Part shown: one piece after another, positions 4,637 to 32,873 of the stretch
Layout of the letters: each line of letters opens with the position of its first letter
Position numbering within the stretch: the stretch's first letter is position 1
Source of the DNA: a virus
UHGV virus genome: UHGV-0123446
Reading direction: 5' to 3' (one strand)
Length of the DNA stretch: 35,688 nucleotides
Made by a program: the position numbers and the translations under genes
The notes under the pieces: generated by a model
What the model was told of the DNA's origin: nothing
Database searches by the model: none
The model's input: only the letters and a program-made list of their open reading frames with translations

Positions 4637-5487
4637 GCACCATCCTGAAATGGGCAGGAAATAAAACCGCCATAATGTCCGAACTGAAAAAGCATCTTCC
4701 TGCTGGCCCGCGACTGGTTGAACCTTTCGCGGGTTCCTGTGCAGTGATGATGGAGACGGATTATCCCAGCTATCTTGTTGCGGATATTAATCCTGATTTA
4801 ATCAACCTCTATAAAAAGGTTGCTGCTGATTGTGAGGCGTTTATATCTCGTGCCAGAGCTTTATTTGAGGAAGCAAACAGGGAGGTGGCTTATTACAACA
4901 TAAGGCAGGAGTTTAATTACTCCACTGAAATTACTGATTTCATGAAAGCGGTATATTTCCTGTATCTCAATCGTCACGGTTACCGTGGTTTATGTCGCTA
5001 TAACAAGAGCGGGCATTTCAACATTCCCTACGGTAATTATAAAAATCCGTATTTCCCTGAAAAAGAAATTCGCGCATTTGCAGAGAAAGCCCAGCGGGCA
5101 ACGTTTATCTGCGCCAGCTTTGATGAAACGCTGGCGATGTTGAAGGTGGGGGATGTGGTGTATTGCGATCCGCCTTATGACGGTACGTTTTCCGGCTATC
5201 ACACTGATGGTTTCACTGAAGATGATCAGTATCACCTGGCATCCATTCTTGAACATCGGTCATCAGAAGGACATCCGGTCATTGTTTCTAACAGTAACAC
5301 GTCTTTGACCCGGTCCCTTTATCGTAATTTCACTCACCACTACATCAGGGCGAAACGCAGCATCGGCGTTGCAGCGGGGGAGGGAAAATTTGCAACAGAG
5401 ATGATTGCCACTAAATCTGCTAATTGGTTTAGTGCCGATTTTAGTAGGGGACGTGACTCTACTGTTATTTTCGGGGTGCAAGTGTGA
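4633..5487 (+). CDS. Orphan DNA adenine methyltransferase (Dam family, N6-adenine); ORF-track start 4573 is an extension
   Basis: N-terminal SAM-binding motif LKWAGNK...EPFAGSCAV and catalytic DPPY motif ([10 protein letters not shown]); no adjacent restriction endonuclease. Confidence 0.85.
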
Positions 5488-6314
5488 AAGAAATGCACCA
5501 CGGAATTCATCATTTCCATGGGACGCCTGTCTGGGGAAGTGCTGGCGACGTTCATCGTATTGCGGTGAGCGGAGCTGGCGCTTTCGTCTCCTATGTACGA
5601 CCAGATCAGATTGCGGCGTCCATTCAGCACGCTCAGGTCGTCGGCATTGATAACGGCGCATTTTCTGCATGGGTGCGTGGGCTAAAAATTAACTGGAGTG
5701 ATTTTTATAAATGGCTCCTGAACTATTACCACCATCCTAAGGTCGCTTTTTTTGTCATTCCTGATGTTGTGGACGGAGGTGAACGTGACAATGATGCCCT
5801 GATAAACGAAGTTCCGAAAATGTTCTACGGGAAGGCAACTCCCGTCTGGCATCTGCACGAGTCAATCGATCGGCTTATCGAGCTATGTCGTGAATGGCCT
5901 CGTGTCTGCTTTGGATCGTCTGGTGAATATGCGGCTATCAGAACTGCGCACTGGCATCGTCGTATGCAGGACGCTTTTGAAGCAATTTATTGCCGACACA
6001 ATTTCAAAACAGCTGTTCATGGTTTGCGCATGCTTGACGGTCGTGTGTTGGGAAATTACCCACTGGCGACTGCCGACAGTACAAATCTTGCCTGCAATGT
6101 CCCCAAATTTAATAGCAAATATCCTGAGCTGACGCGGGCTATTCAGGAGGCTGAGTATTCGCGCAATCTGACGGAAAAGGAGCTGAAAGCTGTCATTCTG
6201 AAAAACCGTTGCGCAATTTTAAAAGGTGCAATTGAAGCTGTTCGCCCACCTTCAGTTTCTGATTGGCTGTCGAATGGTTTGCAGCCTTCACAGCTCGAAC
6301 TGGAGATTGCGTAA
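5484..6314 (+). CDS. Uncharacterised protein (about 275 aa) translationally coupled to dam; function unknown
   Basis: GTG start overlaps the dam stop (GTGA), stop overlaps the gene A start (TAATG); no recognisable nucleotide-binding or zinc motif. Confidence 0.5.
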
Positions 6315-8686
6315 TGAACTACAGCTATTCCTGGAATGCTGAGAAAAAAGCAATCAATCCTTACGTAGAGACAGAAGAGCAATCTTCAGTTTCTGCGCTT
6401 TCAAACCTGATCGCTCTGTACGCTGCCGATAACGAGCAGGAACAGCTGCGCCGCGAGGCACTGAGTGATCAGGTCTGGGAGCGTTATTTCTTTAATGAAT
6501 CCCGTGATCCTGTCCAGCGCGAAATGGAGCAGGATAAGCTCATTAGTCGGGCAAAGCTGGCGCATGAGCAGCAGCGTTTTAATCCAGATATGGTCATTCT
6601 GGCGGACGTCAATGCCCAGCCTTCCCATATCAGCAAGCCGCTGATGCAACGTATTGAATACTTCAGCAGCCTGGGCAGGCCAAAGGCTTATTCCCGCTAT
6701 TTGCGTGAGACGATTAAGCCATGTCTGGAACGGCTGGAGCATGTACGCGACTGTCAGCTATCCACTTCTTTTCGCTTTATGGCAAGCCATGAAGGGCTGG
6801 ACGGCCTGCTGATCCTGCCTGAAATGAGTCAGGATCAGGTGAAACGCCTGTCCACCCTGGTAGCTGCGCATATGAGCATGTGCCTTGATGCAGCTTGTGG
6901 CGATTTGTATGTCACCGATGACGTTAAGCCAGAAGAAATCCGCAAGACATGGGAAAAGGTGGCAGCGGAAACCCTGCGTCTGGATGTCATCCCGCCTGCG
7001 TTTGAGCAACTCCGCCGGAAAAGAAACCGCCGTAAACCCGTGCCCTATGAACTCATTCCGGGTTCGCTGGCGCGTATGTTGTGCGCTGACTGGTGGTACC
7101 GGAAATTATGGAAGATGCGTTGCGAATGGCGGGAAGAGCAGTTGCGTGCTGTCTGCCTGGTCAGCAAAAAAGCATCTCCCTATGTCAGCTATGAAGCCGT
7201 GATGCATAAACGTGAGCAGCGCCGTAAGTCGCTGGAGTTTTTTCGTTCTCATGAACTGGTGAACGAAGACGGCGACACGCTGGACATGGAGGATGTGGTA
7301 AACGCCAGCAGCAGCAACCCTGCGCATCGCCGCAATGAGATGATGGCCTGTGTTAAAGGCCTGGAGCTTATCGCGGAAATGCGCGGTGACTGCGCCGTTT
7401 TCTACACCATCACCTGTCCGTCACGTTTCCATTCCACGCTAAATAATGGCAGGCCCAACCCAACTTGGACAAATGCGACGGTAAGACAAAGCAGTGATTA
7501 TCTGGTCGGCATGTTTGCTGCATTTCGTAAGGCGATGCACAAAGCCGGATTGCGGTGGTATGGCGTGCGGGTGGCTGAGCCGCATCATGACGGTACAGTT
7601 CACTGGCACCTGTTGTGTTTTATGCGCAAAAAAGACCGCCGCGCCATCACTGCATTACTGCGTAAGTTTGCCATCCGTGAAGACCGCGAGGAACTGGGCA
7701 ATAACACTGGGCCGCGCTTTAAGTCTGAGTTGATTAACCCGCGCAAAGGTACGCCAACAAGCTACATCGCGAAATACATCAGTAAGAACATTGACGGGCG
7801 TGGTCTGGCTGGCGAGATCAGCAAGGAAACGGGTAAATCTCTGCGTGATAACGCTGAATACGTTAATGCCTGGGCGTCTCTGCATCGTGTTCAGCAATTC
7901 CGCTTCTTTGGCATTCCGGGGCGTCAGGCTTACCGTGAACTGCGATTGCTGGCTGGTCAGGCGGCAAGGCAACAGGGTGACAAAAAAGCAGGTGCGCCGG
8001 TACTGGATAACCCGCGCCTTGATGCCATTCTGGCTGCAGCTGATGCTGGTTGCTTTGCCACCTACATCATGAAGCAGGGCGGCGTACTGGTTCCCCGTAA
8101 ATATCACCTCATCAGAACCGCTTATGAAATCAACGAAGAGCCGACCGCCTATGGCGATCACGGTATTCGTATTTATGGCATCTGGTCACCCATTGCAGAG
8201 GGCAAGATCTGCACTCATGCAGTGAAGTGGAAAATGGTTCGTAAAGCCGTTGACGTTCAGGAGGCGGCAGCCGACCAGGGCGCTTGCGCCCCTTGGACTC
8301 GTGGCAATAACTGTCCCCTTGCTGAAAGCTTGTACCAACAAGGGAAAGACAAATCAGCTGATGGGGATACCAGAACGGATATCACCCGCATGGATGACAA
8401 GGAATTGCACGATTACCTGCACAGTATGAACAAAAAAGAGCGCCGGGAACTGGCTGCAAGGTTACGCCTGGTGAAACAGAAACGGCGTAGAGACTACAAA
8501 CAGCGAATTACAGATCATCAGCGACAGCAGCTCGTCTATGAACTGAAGTCCAGAGGATTTGATGGCAGCGAGAAAGAGGTCGATTTACTCCTTCGCGGTG
8601 GCAGTATTCCGTCAGGAGCAGGCCTGCGTATCTTCTATCGGAACCAGCGTTTGCAGGAAGATGATAAGTGGCGGGATCTGTATTAA
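6314..8686 (+). CDS. A: Replication initiation protein gpA (rolling-circle replication endonuclease), P2/186 family
   Basis: About 790 aa, last gene of the early operon; start ATG overlaps the upstream stop; ORF-track start 6263 is an extension. Confidence 0.85.
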
Positions 8687-8778
8687 TTACGCGGGTTAAC
8701 AATTCGTGCTCTTAATAATACCAGGCATATCAGGCTGATGAACGTAAAAAAACGTTTTACATCAGTAAGATTATTATA

Positions 8779-8798
8779 TACTGTAAATATAAACAGTG
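8779..8798. promoter_or_regulatory. LexA (SOS) box taCTGTaaatataaACAGtg
   Basis: CTGT-N8-ACAG with AT-rich spacer, about 40 bp upstream of the 8839 ORF and the DinI-like gene. Confidence 0.6.
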
Positions 8799-8838
8799 GT
8801 TATGTATACAGTATTGCTTTGGTGTCATAGGAGGAAAG

Positions 8839-9027
8839 ATGCAGGACTATTTTTTGGAGTCTTTGAAGCTCCAGCGCATTGATTTTTTTCTTAAGCTTGT
8901 AGCGGCTAGTGAGTGTAGTGATGAAGAGAAGGGGCTGGCCCTGCAGTGGGTTTCTGAACTGACAGATGAACTCATGGCAAAAATCAGAACCCATGAATAC
9001 AACCGCTCAATGGATGTCATCAGCTGA
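8839..9027 (+). CDS. Small protein (62 aa) downstream of the LexA box; possible N-terminal part or partner of a Tum-like antirepressor
   Basis: aggagg SD just upstream of the ATG; ends 10 bp before the DinI-like ORF in a different frame. Confidence 0.4.
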   Translation: MQDYFLESLKLQRIDFFLKLVAASECSDEEKGLALQWVSELTDELMAKIRTHEYNRSMDVIS

Positions 9028-9037
9028 GGTGACTTTT

Positions 9038-9271
9038 ATGCGCATTGAAATAATGATCGATAAAGAGCAGAAGATTAGCCAGTCTACACTGGACGCCCTT
9101 GAATCCGAGCTTTACCGCAATCTGCGCCCCCTGTATCCCAAAACGGTAATTCGTATCCGCAAAGGTAGCTCTAACGGTGTGGAACTGACCGGACTGCAAC
9201 TGGACGAAGAAAGAAAACAAGTGATGAAAATTATGCAGAAGGTGTGGGAAGACGACAGCTGGCTGCATTAA
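9038..9271 (+). CDS. DinI-like protein (77 aa)
   Basis: MRIEIMIDKEQKISQSTLDALESELYRNLRPLYPKTVIRIRKGSSNGVELTGLQ...VWEDDSWL resembles E. coli DinI (MRIEVTIAK...) along its length; LexA box upstream. Confidence 0.7.
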   Translation: MRIEIMIDKEQKISQSTLDALESELYRNLRPLYPKTVIRIRKGSSNGVELTGLQLDEERKQVMKIMQKVWEDDSWLH

Positions 9272-9404
9272 GAAACGTTGCTGGCGTCTGAACTTGTTTC
9301 TGGCGTCAGCAAGGTTGAACAACGAGCCCTTGCGAGGCGTTAGCTCTGTAGTGCATGTCTATGCCGCATGAGATCGCATGATCGTTTGAGGATCGTTTTT
9401 GCTA

Positions 9405-9431
9405 AGGCCCGCCAGAACTGGCGGGCTTTTG
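9405..9431 (+). terminator. Rho-independent terminator (GC-rich 9-bp stem gcccgccag/ctggcgggc then TTTTG)
   Basis: Inverted repeat followed by a T-run, downstream of the DinI-like gene. Confidence 0.5.
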
Positions 9432-9475
9432 CGTAGATCATGCAGGTGCATGAAAACCACTACATAAAGCGGGCA

Positions 9476-9494
9476 GGCGTGGCGGGGATACGAG
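9476..9494. other. Candidate cos site (cohesive-end sequence)
   Basis: GGCGTGGCGGGGATACGAG: the first 13 nt match my recollection of the 186 cohesive end (GGCGTGGCGGGGAAAGCAT; P2 GGCGAGGCGGGGAAAGCAC); lies in the A-to-Q interval where cos is expected. Confidence 0.4.
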
Positions 9495-9504
9495 CGCGCG
9501 CTCA

Positions 9505-9533
9505 CTGACAGTTTTCAGAAAAGTATATATAAT
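9505..9533 (+). promoter_or_regulatory. Near-consensus sigma70 promoter (CTGACA, 17-bp spacer, TATAAT) for the 9571 gene
   Basis: -35 at 9505..9510 and -10 at 9528..9533; gene start at 9571. Confidence 0.45.
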
Positions 9534-9570
9534 CGCCTGAAAGATCTATACGTGCAGTGGAAATCATCAA

Positions 9571-10605
9571 ATGGATAAAAGATATCAGGTTTTTGTTAGT
9601 TCAACTTTTGCTGATCTTGAAGAAGAAAGACAGGAAGTAATGCAAGCACTGCTGGAGCTTGATTGTATGCCAGCAGGAATGGAATTATTTCCAGCAACAA
9701 ATAGTGATCAGTGGAGTTTAATAAAAAAAATAATTGACGATAGTGATTATTATATTGTTATCTTGGCAGGGCGTTATGGTTCAATTGGTCCTGATGGAAT
9801 AAGCTATACAGAAATGGAGTATCGTTATGCTTTGGAAACTGGTAAGCCAGTTATAGGTTTTATTCATAAAGATAAAAGTAACCTCCCCGCAAAACGTTGT
9901 GAGTCAAACCCTGAAGGCGTAGAAAAACTAAAGGCTTTCGAAGAGCTAGTTAAAACAAAATTATGTCGTTTTTGGGAGTCTCCTGCAGAGTTAGGTAGCC
10001 AGGTTAGCAGAAGTTTGATTAGACTAATTAAAGAATGTCCTGCAATTGGGTGGGTTAAAGGAAATTTAGTAACTAATGATGGTGATGCAAAGGAAATATT
10101 GAAATTAAAAAGGCGAATTGAGGAGCTTGAAAGTCAACTTGTATCAAGTATGACTGAAGCGCCTGCAGGTGCAGAAAAACTATCTCAAGGAGATGAGCTT
10201 TTTGAATTGGATTATGAATTCTGTGTGTCGCCTACAGAATGGAGACATAATGGTGAAGAATATACCGATAAGGTCAAATTAAGCTGGAACGATATTTTTT
10301 CATATGTTTCGCCTTTGATGATAGATGAGATAGTGGATGATAAGCTATATAGTGCTTTAAATAACTGTGTGCGAAATGCAGTTCAAGATATCATCTATGA
10401 GGATTTTAAAGATATGAATTTATTATCTTTAAAAGTATCTAATTCTGATTTCCAAACAATAAAAGTGCAGTTTAGGGCGCTTGGGTTAATTATTAAAAGT
10501 GAAAAGAGTAGAAGTGTTAAAGATAAAGGTACTTATTGGACTTTAACACCGTATGGCGAAAATTTAATGACAACATTGAGAGCGATTAAAAAAACTTTGG
10601 TATAG
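9571..10605 (+). CDS. Cargo protein of 344 aa with DUF4062/TIR-like N-terminal domain; candidate anti-phage defence protein
   Basis: Clean ORF with its own promoter and terminator; AT-rich; N-terminal pattern YQVFVSSTFADLEEER...DYYIVILAGRYGS...SYTEMEYRYA...GKPVIGFI recalled as the DUF4062 signature; no Walker A; coiled-coil-like stretch KEILKLKRRIEELESQL; unknown C-terminal half. Confidence 0.6.
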   Translation: MDKRYQVFVSSTFADLEEERQEVMQALLELDCMPAGMELFPATNSDQWSLIKKIIDDSDYYIVILAGRYGSIGPDGISYTEMEYRYALETGKPVIGFIHKDKSNLPAKRCESNPEGVEKLKAFEELVKTKLCRFWESPAELGSQVSRSLIRLIKECPAIGWVKGNLVTNDGDAKEILKLKRRIEELESQLVSSMTEAPAGAEKLSQGDELFELDYEFCVSPTEWRHNGEEYTDKVKLSWNDIFSYVSPLMIDEIVDDKLYSALNNCVRNAVQDIIYEDFKDMNLLSLKVSNSDFQTIKVQFRALGLIIKSEKSRSVKDKGTYWTLTPYGENLMTTLRAIKKTLV

Positions 10606-10610
10606 ATAAC

Positions 10611-10645
10611 AAAGGCCGTTCATATATGAACGGCCTTTGTTTTAT
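10611..10645. terminator. Perfect 28-bp palindrome (aaaggccgttcatat|atatgaacggccttt) with T-runs on both sides; bidirectional terminator between the cargo gene and Q
   Basis: Perfect inverted repeat 10611..10638 between convergent genes, followed by gtttta on the + strand. Confidence 0.6.
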
Positions 10646-11679
10646 TGTGTGGGAAAGCTATATGATTCGAATTTTATAATAACTTTACCAAGCCATTTAT
10701 TTACTTCTTGTATATGCTTTTGCAGTGGTGTTAGCTCATTTCGCACAAAGACGCGGCTGGCCTTCTCCACATCCCCAAACCCCCCGACATTATTAGGCAT
10801 AATCCCCATCATTTGCGGTGGCACACGATGCGCCGCCATCATGTCATCCCGGCTCACGTTCTTGATATTCAAAAACTCATCCTTCGCTGCGACCTCTGAC
10901 AACGGGATAATCTGAAGCCCGTCCTTTTTGCCGTTAGGCGAGTACATAAACAGGTTGCGGAAGTTGCCTGGACCTTTGGCGCTTTTCATCGCGTTGCGGA
11001 GGTTGTTCACATCCTCCTGGTTCTGCGCGGCATCGGTCATATACATGATGAAGCCTGCATGACTGCCGTTAATGTAATACTTGCGGCGGAACAGCGTGGC
11101 AGACTCGTTGAGCAGGGCGGATGGAATAGCAGAAAGATAACCGGGCAGACCGTAGATCTCCTGGTTGATGTCCGGTTCCATCAGATGAAAGATGCTGCCT
11201 TTCGTGAACTGATATGGCTGCGTGGCCATACCGTATTGCACAAACCAGTAGGTATCCAGGTCTAACCCGCGTCGGGTGTATTTTGCCAGGGCAGGTTCAA
11301 GGGCGATAACTTCACCGAAGCGGTTCGTGCGTTTCTCCAGGTAGGCGTTACCAAATACCAGATAGTCCTGCACAAAACGCGAAAAAGCCTGCTGGCTGAG
11401 CAGCGGGTGAGGGATGTAGGTGCTGGTCAGAATGTTGCACTTTACTGCAATCGGGGAACTATGATGCACGGCAGCGCGGAAGGTGCGCGCCAGTCCGTCA
11501 AAGCTGACGGGCGGTTCATACCAGCGGTCCATCTGTACGCATTCCACATAATCCAGCAGTTCTCGGCGGTCCAGAACAGGAACGGGATCGCCGAAACTGA
11601 ATGCTTCGGCTGTAGTTTGACTTTTAAGCTGGATCTGTTTCGTCGCCGCAGCGCGGTTCTTCTTACTCTTTCCCATCAA
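10642..11679 (-). CDS. Q: Portal (capsid portal) protein gpQ
   Basis: 345 aa, adjacent to and co-oriented with the large terminase; P2 Q-P arrangement. Confidence 0.9.
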   Translation of the reverse strand: MMGKSKKNRAAATKQIQLKSQTTAEAFSFGDPVPVLDRRELLDYVECVQMDRWYEPPVSFDGLARTFRAAVHHSSPIAVKCNILTSTYIPHPLLSQQAFSRFVQDYLVFGNAYLEKRTNRFGEVIALEPALAKYTRRGLDLDTYWFVQYGMATQPYQFTKGSIFHLMEPDINQEIYGLPGYLSAIPSALLNESATLFRRKYYINGSHAGFIMYMTDAAQNQEDVNNLRNAMKSAKGPGNFRNLFMYSPNGKKDGLQIIPLSEVAAKDEFLNIKNVSRDDMMAAHRVPPQMMGIMPNNVGGFGDVEKASRVFVRNELTPLQKHIQEVNKWLGKVIIKFESYSFPTQ

Positions 11680-21290: not shown

Positions 21291-21888
21291 TCTGCTGCCA
21301 CCGGGTTCAACGCCACTGGAGCGCCGACTGGCGCAAACCTGTAGCGGGATTTCTGATTTGCAGGTGCCGCTGCGTGACTTGTGGAATCCGGCTACCTGTC
21401 CGGTCAGCTTCCTGCCTTATCTCGCCTGGGCGTTCTCTGTGGATCGCTGGGACGAGGGCTGGACAGAAAGCGTCAAACGCCAGGTAGTGAAGGATGCTTT
21501 TTATATTCATCAGCATAAAGGAACCACCAGTGCCGTGCGGCGGGTGGTGGAACCGTTCGGATTCCTGATCCGCATTATTGAGTGGTGGCAGACCGGAGAA
21601 ACACCGGGCACGTTTCGCCTGGATATCGGCGTGCAGGACCAGGGCATCACTGAAGATACCTATCTGGAACTTGAGCGACTGATAAGCGATGCCAAACCAT
21701 GTAGCCGCCACATGATCGGCATGTCCATCAATCTGCAGACCAGCGGCCCGCATTGGGTGGGAGCCGCCAGCTATCTTGGCGAAGAAATCACGATCTATCC
21801 GTATATCAACGAAACGATTATTTCCGGTGGCACCGCGCATGAAGGCGGGGCGGTCCATGTTATTGACACAATGAGAGTGAATCCATGA
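21283..21888 (+). CDS. I: Baseplate/tail protein gpI
   Basis: 201 aa, between J and the tail-fibre gene. Confidence 0.8.
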
Positions 21889-23285
21889 GCACAAAATTTT
21901 ATACCCTGCTGACGGATATTGGCGCGGCGAAACTTGCCAGCGCCGCCGCGCTCGGTGTGCCGCTAAAAATTACCCATATGGCGGTGGGCGATGGCGGCGG
22001 AGCATTGCCAACGCCGGACGCAAAGCAGACGGTACTGGTAAATGAGAAACGCCGGGCTGCGCTGAATATGCTCTATATCGACCCGCAGAACAGCAGCCAG
22101 ATTATTGCTGAACAGGTGATCCCTGAAAACGAGGGCGGTTGGTGGATACGTGAAGTGGGCCTGTTTGATGAGTCCGGGGCATTGATTGCCGTGGGCAACT
22201 GCCCGGAAAGCTATAAGCCGCAACTGGCTGAAGGCAGCGGGCGCACCCAGACCGTGCGCATGGTGCTGATTACCAGCAGCACGGACAATATCATCCTGAA
22301 AATCGACCCTGCTGTAGTGCTGGCAACCCGTAAATACGTCGATGATAAAGTCCTGGAATTAAAGCTGTATGTGGATGACCAGATGAGAAACCACATTGCC
22401 GCACAAGATCCTCATACCCAGTATGCGCAGAAACATAATCCGACATTTACCGGAGAACCAAAAGCGCCGACGCCTGCAGCAGGAAATAACACCACTCGGA
22501 TTGCGACCACAGAGTTTGTTCAGGCCGCTATTACTGCTCTGATTAACGGTGCGCCAGCCACGCTGGACACACTGAAAGAAATTGCCGTAGCAATTAACAA
22601 TGACCCGAAATTCAGTACCACTATTAATAATGCGCTGGCACTGAAAGCGCCGCTGTCGAGTCCGGCACTTACCGGAACGCCAACAGCACCTACTGCGGCA
22701 CAGTCGGTCAACAATACACAGATTGCCACTACGGCTTTTGTGAAATCGGCGATTGCAGGAATGGTGGGTTCTGCACCTGCGGCACTGGATACATTGAACG
22801 AACTGGCGGCGGCGCTGGGGAATGACCCGAACTTTGCCACGACAATGCTTAATGCGCTAGCAGGTAAACAACCGCTGGACAATACGCTGACTAATTTGAG
22901 TGGAAAGGATGTAGCTGGTCTTCTCGCATACCTTGGTTTGGGAGAAGCGGCTAAAAGGAATGTAGGGACAGGGGCGAATCAGATACCTGATATGGGTAGC
23001 TTCACGCTTTCTGTTTCAGGTACTGGATATCAAAAATTACCATCAGGTTTTATTCTTCAGTGGGGCTCAATCGGCGCACCAGGCATTGCACAGGATGTAG
23101 TAACCCATTTCCCGATTGCATTTCCAAACAGATGTCTGCGTGTTTTGGTCTCACAAGACTACACACCAGATAGCGGGGCTGTTGGTTATATTGCCTGTGC
23201 AGGTTTTAGTCCCGACCCGGTTAAATTTATATCCAGAGCCAGTACTCCTGGCCTAGGCGCTTCATTTTTAGCGTTAGGCTGTTAA
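21885..23285 (+). CDS. H: Tail fibre protein gpH; the C-terminal part (from about 22935) lies inside the invertible segment
   Basis: Conserved P2 gpH-like N-terminus [18 protein letters not shown]...; repeated A/T/N-rich fibre repeats; C-terminus follows the hix-like site. Confidence 0.85.
22921..22946. other. hix/gix-like invertase recombination site (left), inside gene H
   Basis: ttctcgcataccttggtttgggagaa; its reverse complement shares the half-site TTCTCCCAAACCAA with the site at 24846..24871 and resembles hixL (TTCTTGAAAACCAAGGTTTTTGATAA). Confidence 0.55.
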
Positions 23286-23306
23286 TTTAGCTATATGGAG
23301 TGAAAA

Positions 23307-23747
23307 ATGAATTACATATATTCCGCGACTACAAACTCTTTCTATCCGCTGGAGATGAAAGAGGATTACACTCAAGCTGACTCATGGCCAGATGATGCTG
23401 TTGAAGTTGATGAGCAAGTGTATATTGCGTTTTCCGGATTACCGCCGAAAGGAAAAATCCGTATCGCTGGAGAAAATGGTTTTCCTGCATGGTCCGAAAT
23501 TCCACCACCAACACATGAGGAACAAATTGCTGCAGCCGAACTGGAGAAGCAGCAATTGATTAATCAGGCCAACGATTATATGAACAGTAAACAATGGCCT
23601 GGTAAAGCGGCTATTGGTCGTCTGAAAGGTGACGAACTGGCGCAATATAATTTGTGGCTGGATTACCTGGACGCACTGGAACTGGTCGATACTTCCGGTG
23701 CGCCAGATATTGAATGGCCTACGCCTCCGGCAGTTCAGGCCAGATGA
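23307..23747 (+). CDS. G: Tail fibre assembly chaperone gpG (currently expressed orientation)
   Basis: 146 aa, conserved Tfa C-terminal pattern (LELVDTSGAPDIEWPTPP); directly after H. Confidence 0.8.
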   Translation: MNYIYSATTNSFYPLEMKEDYTQADSWPDDAVEVDEQVYIAFSGLPPKGKIRIAGENGFPAWSEIPPPTHEEQIAAAELEKQQLINQANDYMNSKQWPGKAAIGRLKGDELAQYNLWLDYLDALELVDTSGAPDIEWPTPPAVQAR

Positions 23748-24324
23748 CATCCGGCGCGGTGCTGGTATCTGTTGCCGTCACCGCGTCAATGTAATCCAGC
23801 ACAGCGTTAAGTCGGGTGGTTTCTGCCTGCGTCAGCTTCCGCCCGGCCTGCAATTTCAGTTGAATCAGACTGATGGAAGCCATTGCAGTATCAATCAGTG
23901 ACTGACGCTGTGCTTCTGCCGCGTCTACTGCGGCGCTATGCTGTGCCTCAGTATCGGTCACCCATTTCTTACCATCCCATTTATCGAATGGCGTTAACGG
24001 GGCGATAGTGGTTGTATTTTCAGGATAATCACCCGGAGCTGTGATTTCTTTGGCGTCTCCCGTTTCGGTGTTATAGACGATTTCACCGCGATGGTCTGGC
24101 ACATATTCCCATGCGTTTAAATCCATCGAACGGCAGATAGCATAACCCGCCTTATGTGTGCCAGGAGCATCTAAACAGGAATATGCAGGGATACCGACAC
24201 CCACAGCAAGATATTCAGTTGATGCAGAAATATACTCCCGTGTCTCACTGTCATAGTTATAAACGGTAATCTCTCCTGCCTTTGTGGCAATAAATTTACT
24301 ATTCAAGATGGCGTTATACATCAT
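23719..24324 (-). CDS. Alternative tail fibre assembly chaperone (inverse-orientation partner)
   Basis: 201 aa, Tfa-like C-terminus (DTSTAPDVIWPELPEA); convergent with and overlapping G; downstream of the alternative fibre tip segment. Confidence 0.75.
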   Translation of the reverse strand: MMYNAILNSKFIATKAGEITVYNYDSETREYISASTEYLAVGVGIPAYSCLDAPGTHKAGYAICRSMDLNAWEYVPDHRGEIVYNTETGDAKEITAPGDYPENTTTIAPLTPFDKWDGKKWVTDTEAQHSAAVDAAEAQRQSLIDTAMASISLIQLKLQAGRKLTQAETTRLNAVLDYIDAVTATDTSTAPDVIWPELPEA

Positions 24325-24857
24325 GCAGCCCTCACAATGTAATTAAATGAAATATTACGTGGGCGTGTCTCTGCTGCACCGACAATACTGGTACTCAACC
24401 CCGTCGCTGTTCGTTTGTTATTTTTATTTCCTTCAATCAGACAGTTGTAATCATCATTACCAATTAACGAATTAGTGGCATCAATACCGTCCGGGGACAA
24501 GGCATTAGTTGTAGAACTTAAAGTCAGCATCTCGTCTGAACTTGGAAGATTTTTTAATGGTATTTCATTGCGAGAAATACCCGCGTAAAAAAAGGACTCA
24601 TGCCTGTGCGCTTCAAAAGAGTCATCCTGAAGACTTAGCAAGGCACGTCCCGCATCCACACCACGCCCGTCATCCCAGCCACGAATAAACTCACCACGTA
24701 AATCAGGCAATTTATTTGTCGGATAAGCCTTTGCCAGTTCCGGGTATTCTTCAGCAGAAAAAGCGGCACCGTTACATTTCAGCCAGCCTGTTGGCGGAGT
24801 GGCGGAAGGCCACGGAACAGGCACGCCAACGGGTAATGCCGAACCTTCTCCCAAACC
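24321..24857 (-). CDS. Alternative tail-fibre C-terminal segment (promoterless; would be fused to the H constant part after inversion)
   Basis: Begins at the hix-like site with the same GLGE junction as H; contains the LPVGVPVPWPS...GWLKCNG...LPDLRG motif typical of Mu/P1/e14-type fibre variable parts. Confidence 0.7.
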   Translation of the reverse strand, partial: GLGEGSALPVGVPVPWPSATPPTGWLKCNGAAFSAEEYPELAKAYPTNKLPDLRGEFIRGWDDGRGVDAGRALLSLQDDSFEAHRHESFFYAGISRNEIPLKNLPSSDEMLTLSSTTNALSPDGIDATNSLIGNDDYNCLIEGNKNNKRTATGLSTSIVGAAETRPRNISFNYIVRAA

Positions 24858-24871
24858 AACGTTTAAGGAAA
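24846..24871. other. hix/gix-like invertase recombination site (right)
   Basis: ttctcccaaaccaacgtttaaggaaa; inverted relative to the site at 22921..22946; about 50 bp upstream of the invertase gene. Confidence 0.55.
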
Positions 24872-24920
24872 TGCAGAGGTAACAGCTAACTGGCATCATC
24901 TCCGGTTTTTATTCAGGGGG

Positions 24921-25493
24921 ATGATCATGCTTATTGGCTATGTACGCGTGTCAACAAATGACCAGAACACCGATTTGCAACGTAATGCACTGAACTGCGC
25001 GGGATGTGAGCGGATTTTTGAGGACAAAATCAGTGGCACTAAGTCCGACAGACCGGGGCTGAAAAAACTACTCAGGACACTATCGGCAGGAGACACGCTG
25101 GTTGTCTGGAAGCTGGACAGGTTGGGACGCAGTATGCGGCATCTTGTTACGCTGATAGAAGAGTTGCGCCAGCGTGGCGTGAATTTCCGAAGCCTGACTG
25201 ACAGTATTGATACCAGTACCCCAATGGGCCGTTTCTTTTTTCATGTCATGGGTGCCCTGGCTGAAATGGAACGCGAACTGATAGTTGAACGTACCAGGGC
25301 GGGGATTGCTGCAGCTCGCGACAAAGGCAGAGTAGGTGGACGCCGTCCTAAGTTGACCACCGAACAGTGGGCACAGATTGGACGTTTACTAGAGGCCGGA
25401 GAATCAAGACAGCGTATTGCACTGATTTTTGATGTGGGCGTTTCTACCATTTATAGAAAATTTCCGGCAAATAAGAGCAGTGAATCCCCCTGA
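24921..25493 (+). CDS. Serine DNA invertase (Hin/Gin/Pin/Cin family)
   Basis: N-terminal resolvase catalytic domain IGYVRVSTNDQ...VVWKLDRLGRS...MGRFFFHVMGALAEMERELIVERT and C-terminal HTH; closely resembles Hin. Confidence 0.9.
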   Translation: MIMLIGYVRVSTNDQNTDLQRNALNCAGCERIFEDKISGTKSDRPGLKKLLRTLSAGDTLVVWKLDRLGRSMRHLVTLIEELRQRGVNFRSLTDSIDTSTPMGRFFFHVMGALAEMERELIVERTRAGIAAARDKGRVGGRRPKLTTEQWAQIGRLLEAGESRQRIALIFDVGVSTIYRKFPANKSSESP

Positions 25494-32846: not shown

Positions 32847-32873
32847 ATAAATTTCAGGCAACAAAAAACCCAT
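32847..32873. repeat. attR core (27-bp copy of the attL core)
   Basis: Exact repeat of 590..616. Confidence 0.75.

Follow-up and report, generated by a model that had tools for sequence, protein, structure and literature searches.

The window analyzed here, the whole 35,688-nucleotide stretch of virus genome UHGV-0123446, is a chromosomal segment with a 32.3-kb P2/186-like prophage. Between the cos site and the portal gene Q of this prophage lies a single gene, referred to as swz (9571..10605, plus strand), which encodes the 344-amino-acid Swarozyc-family protein WP_001513676.1. In all likelihood the swz cassette is cargo that occupies the cos-Q slot of the defence hotspot in the P2-like prophage and encodes, in one gene, an abortive-infection system of the Swarozyc (Swz) family. 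The protein shares full-length homology with KpSwz of Klebsiella pneumoniae, retains its catalytic and structural residues and has a TIR-like fold, and the cassette combines autonomous expression signals with a position in a variable hotspot. NADase chemistry, activation by a phage portal and the abortive-infection phenotype are known from the literature on the homologue, and we infer that they also apply to the window protein. The portal as trigger would be the least secure of these assignments, because the auxiliary (AUX) domain belongs to a diverged subclade.

KpSwz is the founding member of Swarozyc, a single-protein abortive-infection system (Osinski et al. 2026, bioRxiv 10.64898/2026.05.01.722283). 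Its DUF4062 domain acts as a TIR-like NADase that uses E97 for catalysis and releases ADP-ribose and nicotinamide. The protein is autoinhibited in a 'bouquet' oligomer, and binding of the dodecameric Bas14 portal by the C-terminal winged-helix AUX domain switches the enzyme on (10.64898/2026.05.01.722283). Amino acids 1-341 of the window protein align to positions 2-324 of the KpSwz DUF4062 chain (PDB 10wc/11cq/11cv) with E=6.6e-69 and 38.6% identity. The PDB copy used for Foldseek ends on 2026-04-08, before the release of KpSwz, which was found by a sequence search of a newer copy. The KpSwz chain was rebuilt from the alignment, and the mapping of its residues is secure because an offset of 13 recovers every residue named in the paper (D16, R18, D71, E97A, W176, W238 and Y239). 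The equivalents in the window protein are D2, R4, D57, E83, W161 and W224, with R225 replacing Y239. Identity to KpSwz amounts to 51% in the TIR-like domain (amino acids 1-165), 30% in the stalk and 27% in the AUX domain. When the AUX regions were compared separately by BLASTP, they aligned with E=4e-16 and 28% identity, with two insertions. Thus the window protein resembles KpSwz in its full-length architecture of a DUF4062 TIR-like NADase domain, a helical stalk and an AUX sensor, in its encoding by a single gene for ~330-345 amino acids, and in the correspondence of E83 to E97, R4 to R18, W161 to W176 and the hairpin tryptophan. It differs in the AUX insertions, the exchange of Y239 for arginine and a Q-W-S in place of the Q-W-E motif.

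The DUF4062 signature, which the original prediction had named for the N-terminus, was recovered by Pfam (PF13271) with E=1.5e-29 and 102.4 bits against a cut-off of 24.7, covering the whole model with amino acids 6-87. DUF4062 was the sole Pfam family to pass; no TIR family, repeat family or NTPase family did. In PHROGs the protein matches the unknown-function family phrog_15411 over its full length (E=2e-115). A motif check found no Walker A motif in the 344-amino-acid protein, as had been stated before, so that membership of the OLD type fails.

The putative DUF4062/NIR TIR-like NADase domain extends from amino acid 1 to ~160 (9571..10050, plus strand) and comprises five beta-alpha units, as indicated by Pfam, homology and AlphaFold2. 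In the AlphaFold2 model, which was built on 50 homologues and has a pLDDT of 84.2, the N-terminus is predicted as a five-stranded beta/alpha fold with strands at 5-11, 32-35, 60-65, 94-99 and 131-135 and helices between them. Foldseek placed SPARTA TIR-APAZ, the plant NLR TIR domain of RPP1, BcmB, SARM1 and DNPH1 among the top matches with probabilities of 0.97-1.00. The same structural neighbours are stated for DUF4062 in the NIR paper (10.64898/2026.09.04.749371). These TIR and N-glycosidase folds agree with the TIR/nucleoside-deoxyribosyltransferase-like N-terminus proposed earlier. The likeness to canonical TIR proteins such as Thoeris ThsB exists at the fold level only, as no Pfam TIR match was obtained. 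The catalytic equivalent E83 (9817-9819, plus strand) aligns with the position of the E97A substitution in KpSwz. The original prediction had pointed to a conserved glutamate in the motif YTEMEY; the region was right, but the precise equivalent is the second glutamate.

The coiled-coil-like stretch noticed earlier corresponds to a predicted stalk helix of amino acids 170-195 (10078..10155, plus strand), which AlphaFold2 models as a helix aligned with the stalk region of KpSwz. It is followed by the C-terminal AUX (sensor) domain at amino acids 207-340 (10189..10590, plus strand), delimited by AlphaFold2 and by BLASTP against the KpSwz AUX. This part is modeled with a pLDDT of ~86-94 as a beta-hairpin at 210-238 (strands 210-220 and 229-238, tip W224-R225) and a subsequent winged-helix-like core of helices and strands; W224 at the hairpin tip aligns with W238 of KpSwz. 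Overall, the C-terminus appears as a mixed alpha/beta domain of ~140 amino acids in which HEAT repeats are not seen. An effector with a C-terminal sensor, as the original prediction envisaged, has been shown experimentally for KpSwz, to which the window ORF (open reading frame) aligns over its full length.

The relatives of both proteins were compared in order to place the window protein within the family. Its best 120 homologues are 58-100% identical and come from Enterobacteriaceae, Pseudomonas, Burkholderia, Xanthomonas and others, whereas the best 120 homologues of KpSwz (50-99% identical) come from Yersinia, Salmonella, Citrobacter, Serratia, Pantoea and others. No member is common to both sets, and no E. 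coli protein is found among the best 120 relatives of KpSwz. In a joint alignment of 40 + 40 sequences, identity within the clade of the window protein averages 79% in the TIR-like domain and 57% in the AUX domain, whereas the respective values are 76% and 30% within the KpSwz clade and 54% and 21% between the clades. E83 is invariant in 50 homologues as well as in the 80 sequences of both subclades, and both clades conserve E83, Q47, W48, W161 and W239. An alignment of 50 homologues with 58-75% identity contains ~90 invariant columns. Judged from these alignments, the window protein has Swarozyc architecture and represents a separate subclade with a well-conserved sensor of its own.

Five homologues 'with similar C-terminal auxiliary domains', including one from E. 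coli, were assayed together with KpSwz and had overlapping defence spectra (10.64898/2026.05.01.722283). The E. coli homologue among them, 'EcDUF4062' (UPI0002A39D72), labelled E. coli/'Enterobacteriaceae'/'Shigella', provided strong and broad defence (10.64898/2026.05.01.722283). Similarly, the window protein bears the title 'MULTISPECIES: DUF4062 domain-containing protein [Enterobacteriaceae]', and members from E. coli and Shigella belong to its 90% cluster. Because of this cluster membership and because E. coli proteins are lacking in the KpSwz clade, EcDUF4062 is more likely than not the window protein or a near-identical variant of it. The exact 344-amino-acid sequence is already catalogued under WP_001513676 from the same gpA-cos-gpQ hotspot as system #67 'DUF4062', with 63 occurrences in Table S5 of Rousset et al. 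(2022, PMC9122126). The system was catalogued only, as DUF4062 is absent from the cloned and tested systems in Table S2 of that study (PMC9122126). The original prediction was aware of no characterised defence system with such an architecture; this catalogue and three preprints on DUF4062 defence from 2026 have overtaken that premise.

Independent support for DUF4062 as an NAD+-depleting defence effector comes from two of these preprints (10.64898/2026.09.04.749371 and 10.64898/2026.06.25.731849). The window protein shares the DUF4062/NIR NADase effector with Evangelion (Eva01-Eva04; 10.64898/2026.06.25.731849) and with Vulcan, Vesta and NIR-Avs (10.64898/2026.09.04.749371). These systems have a catalytic Glu-Tyr/Phe motif and a Q-W motif, deplete NAD+, act by abortive infection and are often located on mobile elements (10.64898/2026.06.25.731849, 10.64898/2026.09.04.749371). 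The sensor modules set them apart: a short AUX in Eva01, HEAT repeats in Vulcan, a two-gene operon with an alkaline phosphatase in Vesta and a STAND NTPase with repeats in NIR-Avs. The window protein contains no Pfam repeat family that would correspond to the C-terminal HEAT repeats of Vulcan. An operon with an alkaline phosphatase gene, as in Vesta (vstA and vstB), is not seen, as swz is a single gene in 10 of 10 places read. A STAND/NACHT NTPase with a Walker A motif as in NIR-Avs is lacking in this protein of just 344 amino acids, and neither Pfam nor PADLOC matched the Walker A and Toprim combination of the OLD family. By contrast, the sequence and structure features of Swarozyc are present, namely DUF4062, the catalytic glutamate, the TIR-like fold, a predicted stalk and diverged AUX homology. 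Of the two parts of Evangelion type 1, a DUF4062 core and a short Eva01-type AUX tail, the core was observed in the window protein, and the Evangelion paper places Swarozyc in a separate lineage (10.64898/2026.06.25.731849). Eva03 (E. coli host, active on Dhillonvirus), compared by its description alone, could be related to the clade of the window protein.

The position of swz was analyzed by comparison with P2, 186 and related prophages. The cos core GGCGTGGCGGGGATACGAG is located at 9476..9494, where P2 and 186 suggest by analogy a cohesive end of 19 nt. Its alignment with the cos sequences annotated in 186 (GGCGTGGCGGGGAAAGCAT) and P2 (GGCGAGGCGGGGAAAGCAC) supports the candidate cos proposed earlier. 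The portal gene Q of the resident prophage (10642..11676, minus strand; 61% identical to P2 gpQ) is convergent with swz, its stop codon being located at 10642. The distance from cos to the portal stop is 1147 bp in the window, compared to ~167-176 bp in P2/186, where the terminators tQ/tW are situated inside this gap. The conserved backbone, aligned with three related prophages, ends at ~9501-9503, just upstream of the -35 hexamer of the swz promoter, and beyond this junction the cargo differs in each of them. In phage 500465-1 the slot holds a gene annotated as TIR, to which the bSEFIR model of PADLOC matches with E=4e-66; in Klebsiella phage Kp4845-2 it holds a gene for LmuA of Lamassu (E=2e-142), and in the E. 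coli prophage L027 a three-gene cassette including a STAS-like protein. As each related backbone holds different genes past the junction, the cos-to-Q interval is a genuine cargo slot within the gpA-cos-gpQ hotspot, for which 1,650 arrangements in 18,150 loci have been described in P2-like phages (Rousset et al. 2022, PMC9122126). Thus convergence with Q, the short gap in P2 and a documented hotspot for variable anti-phage genes all hold as originally described. The hotspot also houses the P2 genes old and tin as well as LmuA and bSEFIR, which likewise act on the principle of exclusion genes expressed by the lysogen. The window protein is unrelated to them, and old and tin are located on the gpA side of cos whereas swz is on the Q side.

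The right-hand border of the slot extends into the portal gene. The final ~27 codons of Q (10642-10725) are AT-rich, with a GC content at third codon positions (GC3) of 0.21 compared to 0.65 for the rest of the gene, which places the right-hand recombination junction of the cargo inside Q. The AT-rich tail also occurs in the Klebsiella swz locus and in L027, which lacks swz, but is absent in P2, 186 and phage 500465-1. Its specific co-transfer with swz, possibly as a portal/sensor co-adaptation, was considered and rejected, because L027 has a similar Q tail, aligning from 10659, next to other cargo. Such tails seem to be left generally when cargo is exchanged by recombination within the 3' end of Q.

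The cassette carries its own expression signals. A sigma70-type promoter (CTGACA-17-TATAAT, plus strand) at 9505..9533 matches the consensus in 11/12 positions and, being located beyond the backbone junction, is part of the cassette. It is the sole site with <=1 mismatch from TTGACA-N17-TATAAT in the window, whereas shuffled sequences are expected to yield 0.10. The possibility that the conserved cos flank donates the -35 hexamer, as P2 also has GCGCGCTGAC, was rejected because the divergence of closely related backbones already begins at 9502/9503, before the hexamer is reached. swz has a weak Shine-Dalgarno sequence (GGA, 9 nt upstream). Its stop codon is directly followed by the putative intrinsic terminator, a perfect palindrome at 10608..10641; the original prediction was right about the perfection and position of this palindrome, but its length is 34 bp and not 28 bp. 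The palindrome forms a 15-bp stem that closes with a 4-nt loop. The folding energy is -25.4 kcal/mol (z = -6.3) on the plus strand, where TTTTATTG (UUUUAUUG) comes next, whereas the minus strand folds equally well but without a U-tract. It is placed like P2 tQ and 186 tW, directly after the portal stop codon, with unrelated sequences. Upstream of cos, a terminator-like hairpin (GCTAAGGCCCGCCAG/CTGGCGGGCTTTTGC with a T-run, inverted repeat I3) is located at 9401..9438 on the plus strand at the end of the early A-DinI operon. This region is kept in phages without swz and thus belongs to the backbone and not to the cassette. The hairpin would shield the cassette from transcription of the early operon upstream, and the palindrome would keep swz apart from the convergent late P-Q operon. 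Direct repeats within swz are just short two-copy chance matches, and an Rfam scan of 8600-11000 yielded sub-threshold chance matches on the terminator and nothing else.

swz differs from the phage backbone in base composition and distribution. The GC content of swz is 34.8% with a GC3 of 0.24, whereas the genes A, Q and P show 51-57% and 0.56-0.72, respectively, so that the ORF and its AT-richness were both correctly described by the original prediction, as were the near-consensus promoter and the accessory character of the gene. Only 7/5426 complete E. coli genomes contain the cassette (99.9% identity), always on the chromosome and beside the portal gene, whereas the backbone portal gene occurs in 1236/5426. 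In all 10 places read, swz is a single gene located 36 bp from a P2-type portal gene and bounded by cos and the convergent portal. The identical 344-amino-acid sequence is present on >600 contigs of E. coli, Salmonella, Klebsiella and Shigella. In a collection of 50,697 phages, megablast matched the flanks alone and tblastn gave two 23.5%-identical matches in Acinetobacter phages; hence no sequenced phage isolate of this collection carries the cassette. A 70%-identical Klebsiella homologue occupies the same cos-Q slot, whereas 62-63%-identical homologues from Burkholderia and Pseudomonas, as well as KpSwz, are found in other integrative-element or island contexts. Such a distribution would be expected if swz were defence cargo passed on horizontally, and not if it were a core phage gene.

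The genes of the KpSwz clade have a different setting. KpSwz and the Yersinia Swz genes (loci L023/L025, 2375-5859) are located directly downstream of a conserved AAA ATPase and Peptidase_S8 pair and a Fic gene, within a defence-island-like AlpA/DUF5906 integrative element, unlike the window gene in the P2 slot beside a portal gene.

If the window protein works in analogy to KpSwz, the lysogen would transcribe swz from its own sigma70 promoter, independently of the phage late genes, and the protein would wait as an autoinhibited oligomer. The portal of a foreign phage, or another virion protein, would engage the hairpin and the core of the AUX domain; the stalks would then realign, the TIR-like domains would hydrolyze NAD+, and the infection would abort. 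Homology to KpSwz and the context of hotspot cargo also support the abortive-infection or exclusion protein with an NAD-processing effector that was originally suggested for the lysogen. The resident Q portal and the Bas14 portal show no detectable sequence similarity (E=0.85), which makes self-tolerance through non-recognition of the resident portal plausible.

Several observations weigh against the assignment to a portal-activated Swarozyc system. PADLOC v2.0.0 (2023) and NCBIfam gave no match; these libraries predate the family or do not model it, and their silence reflects library age or coverage and is not evidence against defence. The AUX domain is just 27-28% identical to that of KpSwz, with two insertions and an arginine instead of the hairpin anchor Y239, and the average between-clade AUX identity of 21% leaves room for a different trigger specificity. 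In the clade of the window protein, serine or threonine stands at position three of the Q-W-E motif, where the KpSwz clade has glutamate. The promoter is known from its consensus match alone, and it is not kept upstream of the 70%-identical Klebsiella homologue. Furthermore, a toxin that senses portals would have to be compatible with the portal encoded by the neighbouring gene of its own prophage.

These differences are consistent with an alternative that keeps the effector and the abortive-infection logic and assigns to the diverged AUX domain another phage component as trigger in place of the portal. This might be some other structural protein, or an intermediate of replication or recombination like the one proposed for Eva01. 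Such a trigger would fit the contrast in AUX identity (0.21 between the clades but 0.57 inside that of the window protein) and would be safer for a gene adjoining the prophage's own portal gene. Other DUF4062 systems do respond to quite different triggers, including terminase, lambdap79, nuclease A1-dependent signals and recombination functions (10.64898/2026.09.04.749371, 10.64898/2026.06.25.731849). However, homology to the portal-binding AUX of KpSwz is significant, the hairpin tryptophan and the secondary structure are kept, and the E. coli protein was among the five Swarozyc homologues with overlapping defence spectra. Moreover, the dissimilarity of Q and the Bas14 portal makes non-recognition of self plausible without a new class of trigger. 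We therefore consider a non-portal trigger possible but doubtful.

A further proposal, which we hold with more reserve and regard as rather unlikely in this form, starts from a distinct Swarozyc subclade that resides in P2-like prophages beside their own portal gene and thereby poses a question of self and non-self. The AUX domain might discriminate foreign from resident P2-type portals, which would make the system a prophage weapon against competing phages, or it might sense a non-portal signal, or it might respond to P2-type portals themselves.

A function other than defence, as a nucleotide-metabolism enzyme of benefit to the phage (nucleoside 2-deoxyribosyltransferase or N-glycosidase) or as a lysogenic-conversion moron, is highly improbable. 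The fold does resemble the CMP N-glycosidase BcmB and DNPH1, and Pfam places DUF4062 in the N-ribosyltransferase clan (10.64898/2026.05.01.722283), but the homology to a proven antiphage NADase is full length and includes the sensor, the gene is sporadic hotspot cargo (7 genomes compared to 1236 with the backbone), the alternatives in the slot are known defence genes, and distant homologues reside in other mobile-element islands. The least probable reading, a decaying or silent passenger with an intact-looking ORF that is unexpressed or non-functional in this prophage, could draw on the weak Shine-Dalgarno sequence, the consensus-based promoter and the lack of this promoter at the Klebsiella homologue locus, but is hardly compatible with an identical sequence on >600 contigs in four genera, ~90 invariant columns across 50 homologues, an 11/12 promoter that is unique in the window and a strong terminator.

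The prophage that harbors the proposed Swarozyc cassette is flanked by a 27-bp direct repeat (ATAAATTTCAGGCAACAAAAAACCCAT) at 590-616 and 32847-32873, likely the attL/attR core that delimits the 32.3-kb element. On one side lies a gene of the TetR family, which aligns to the rcdA region of L001 (an E. coli O9:H10 prophage with the same swz), and on the other lie Asp-Al_Ex permease and YbjM-family genes. The phage genes include those for integrase, CI, CII, Dam methylase, gpA, DinI, portal Q, terminase P, capsid and tail. Between Dam methylase and gpA, an ORF of 276 amino acids (5484-6314, plus strand) has no Pfam or PADLOC match; a related gene of 273 amino acids is present in L001, L005 and L010 and absent in L002-L004, L006-L009 and L011, so that it represents another variable accessory gene. 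The tail-fibre region (21885-25493) is invertible and consists of a fibre gene, two opposed tail-fibre-assembly genes and an alternative C-terminal fibre segment on the minus strand. Together with a serine invertase (Resolvase and HTH_7) at 24921-25493, this suggests a host-range switch of the Gin/Cin type. In L001, an AAA-family ATPase and DUF4276 pair that is absent in the window is inserted between integrase and CI (9642-11375), and this site may be a further location of defence cargo.

On its gpA/DinI side, cos is accompanied by a second cargo slot (junction at 9344-9350), which is empty in the window. In ~97%-identical prophages with the same swz (compared in L001-L011), it contains DUF4145, HNH-like, DUF8087 or unannotated genes; further contents are genes of 71+280, 387+178 and 297+87+138 amino acids. 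The P2 hotspot is therefore made up of two slots, one on either side of cos, that are independent of each other.

The Q-proximal side of the P2 cos hotspot is thus a separate cargo slot in which Swz, Lamassu, bSEFIR and other cassettes are swapped. A gene that was annotated merely as 'DUF4062 domain-containing protein' gains a probable functional name as a Swarozyc-family NADase. If P2-type portals were recognised, the system would also act on superinfecting P2 relatives, on the hijacking by P4-type satellites or on the timing of prophage induction. How a portal sensor is accommodated next to its own portal gene would define the rules of AUX specificity and the policing of related phages and satellites.

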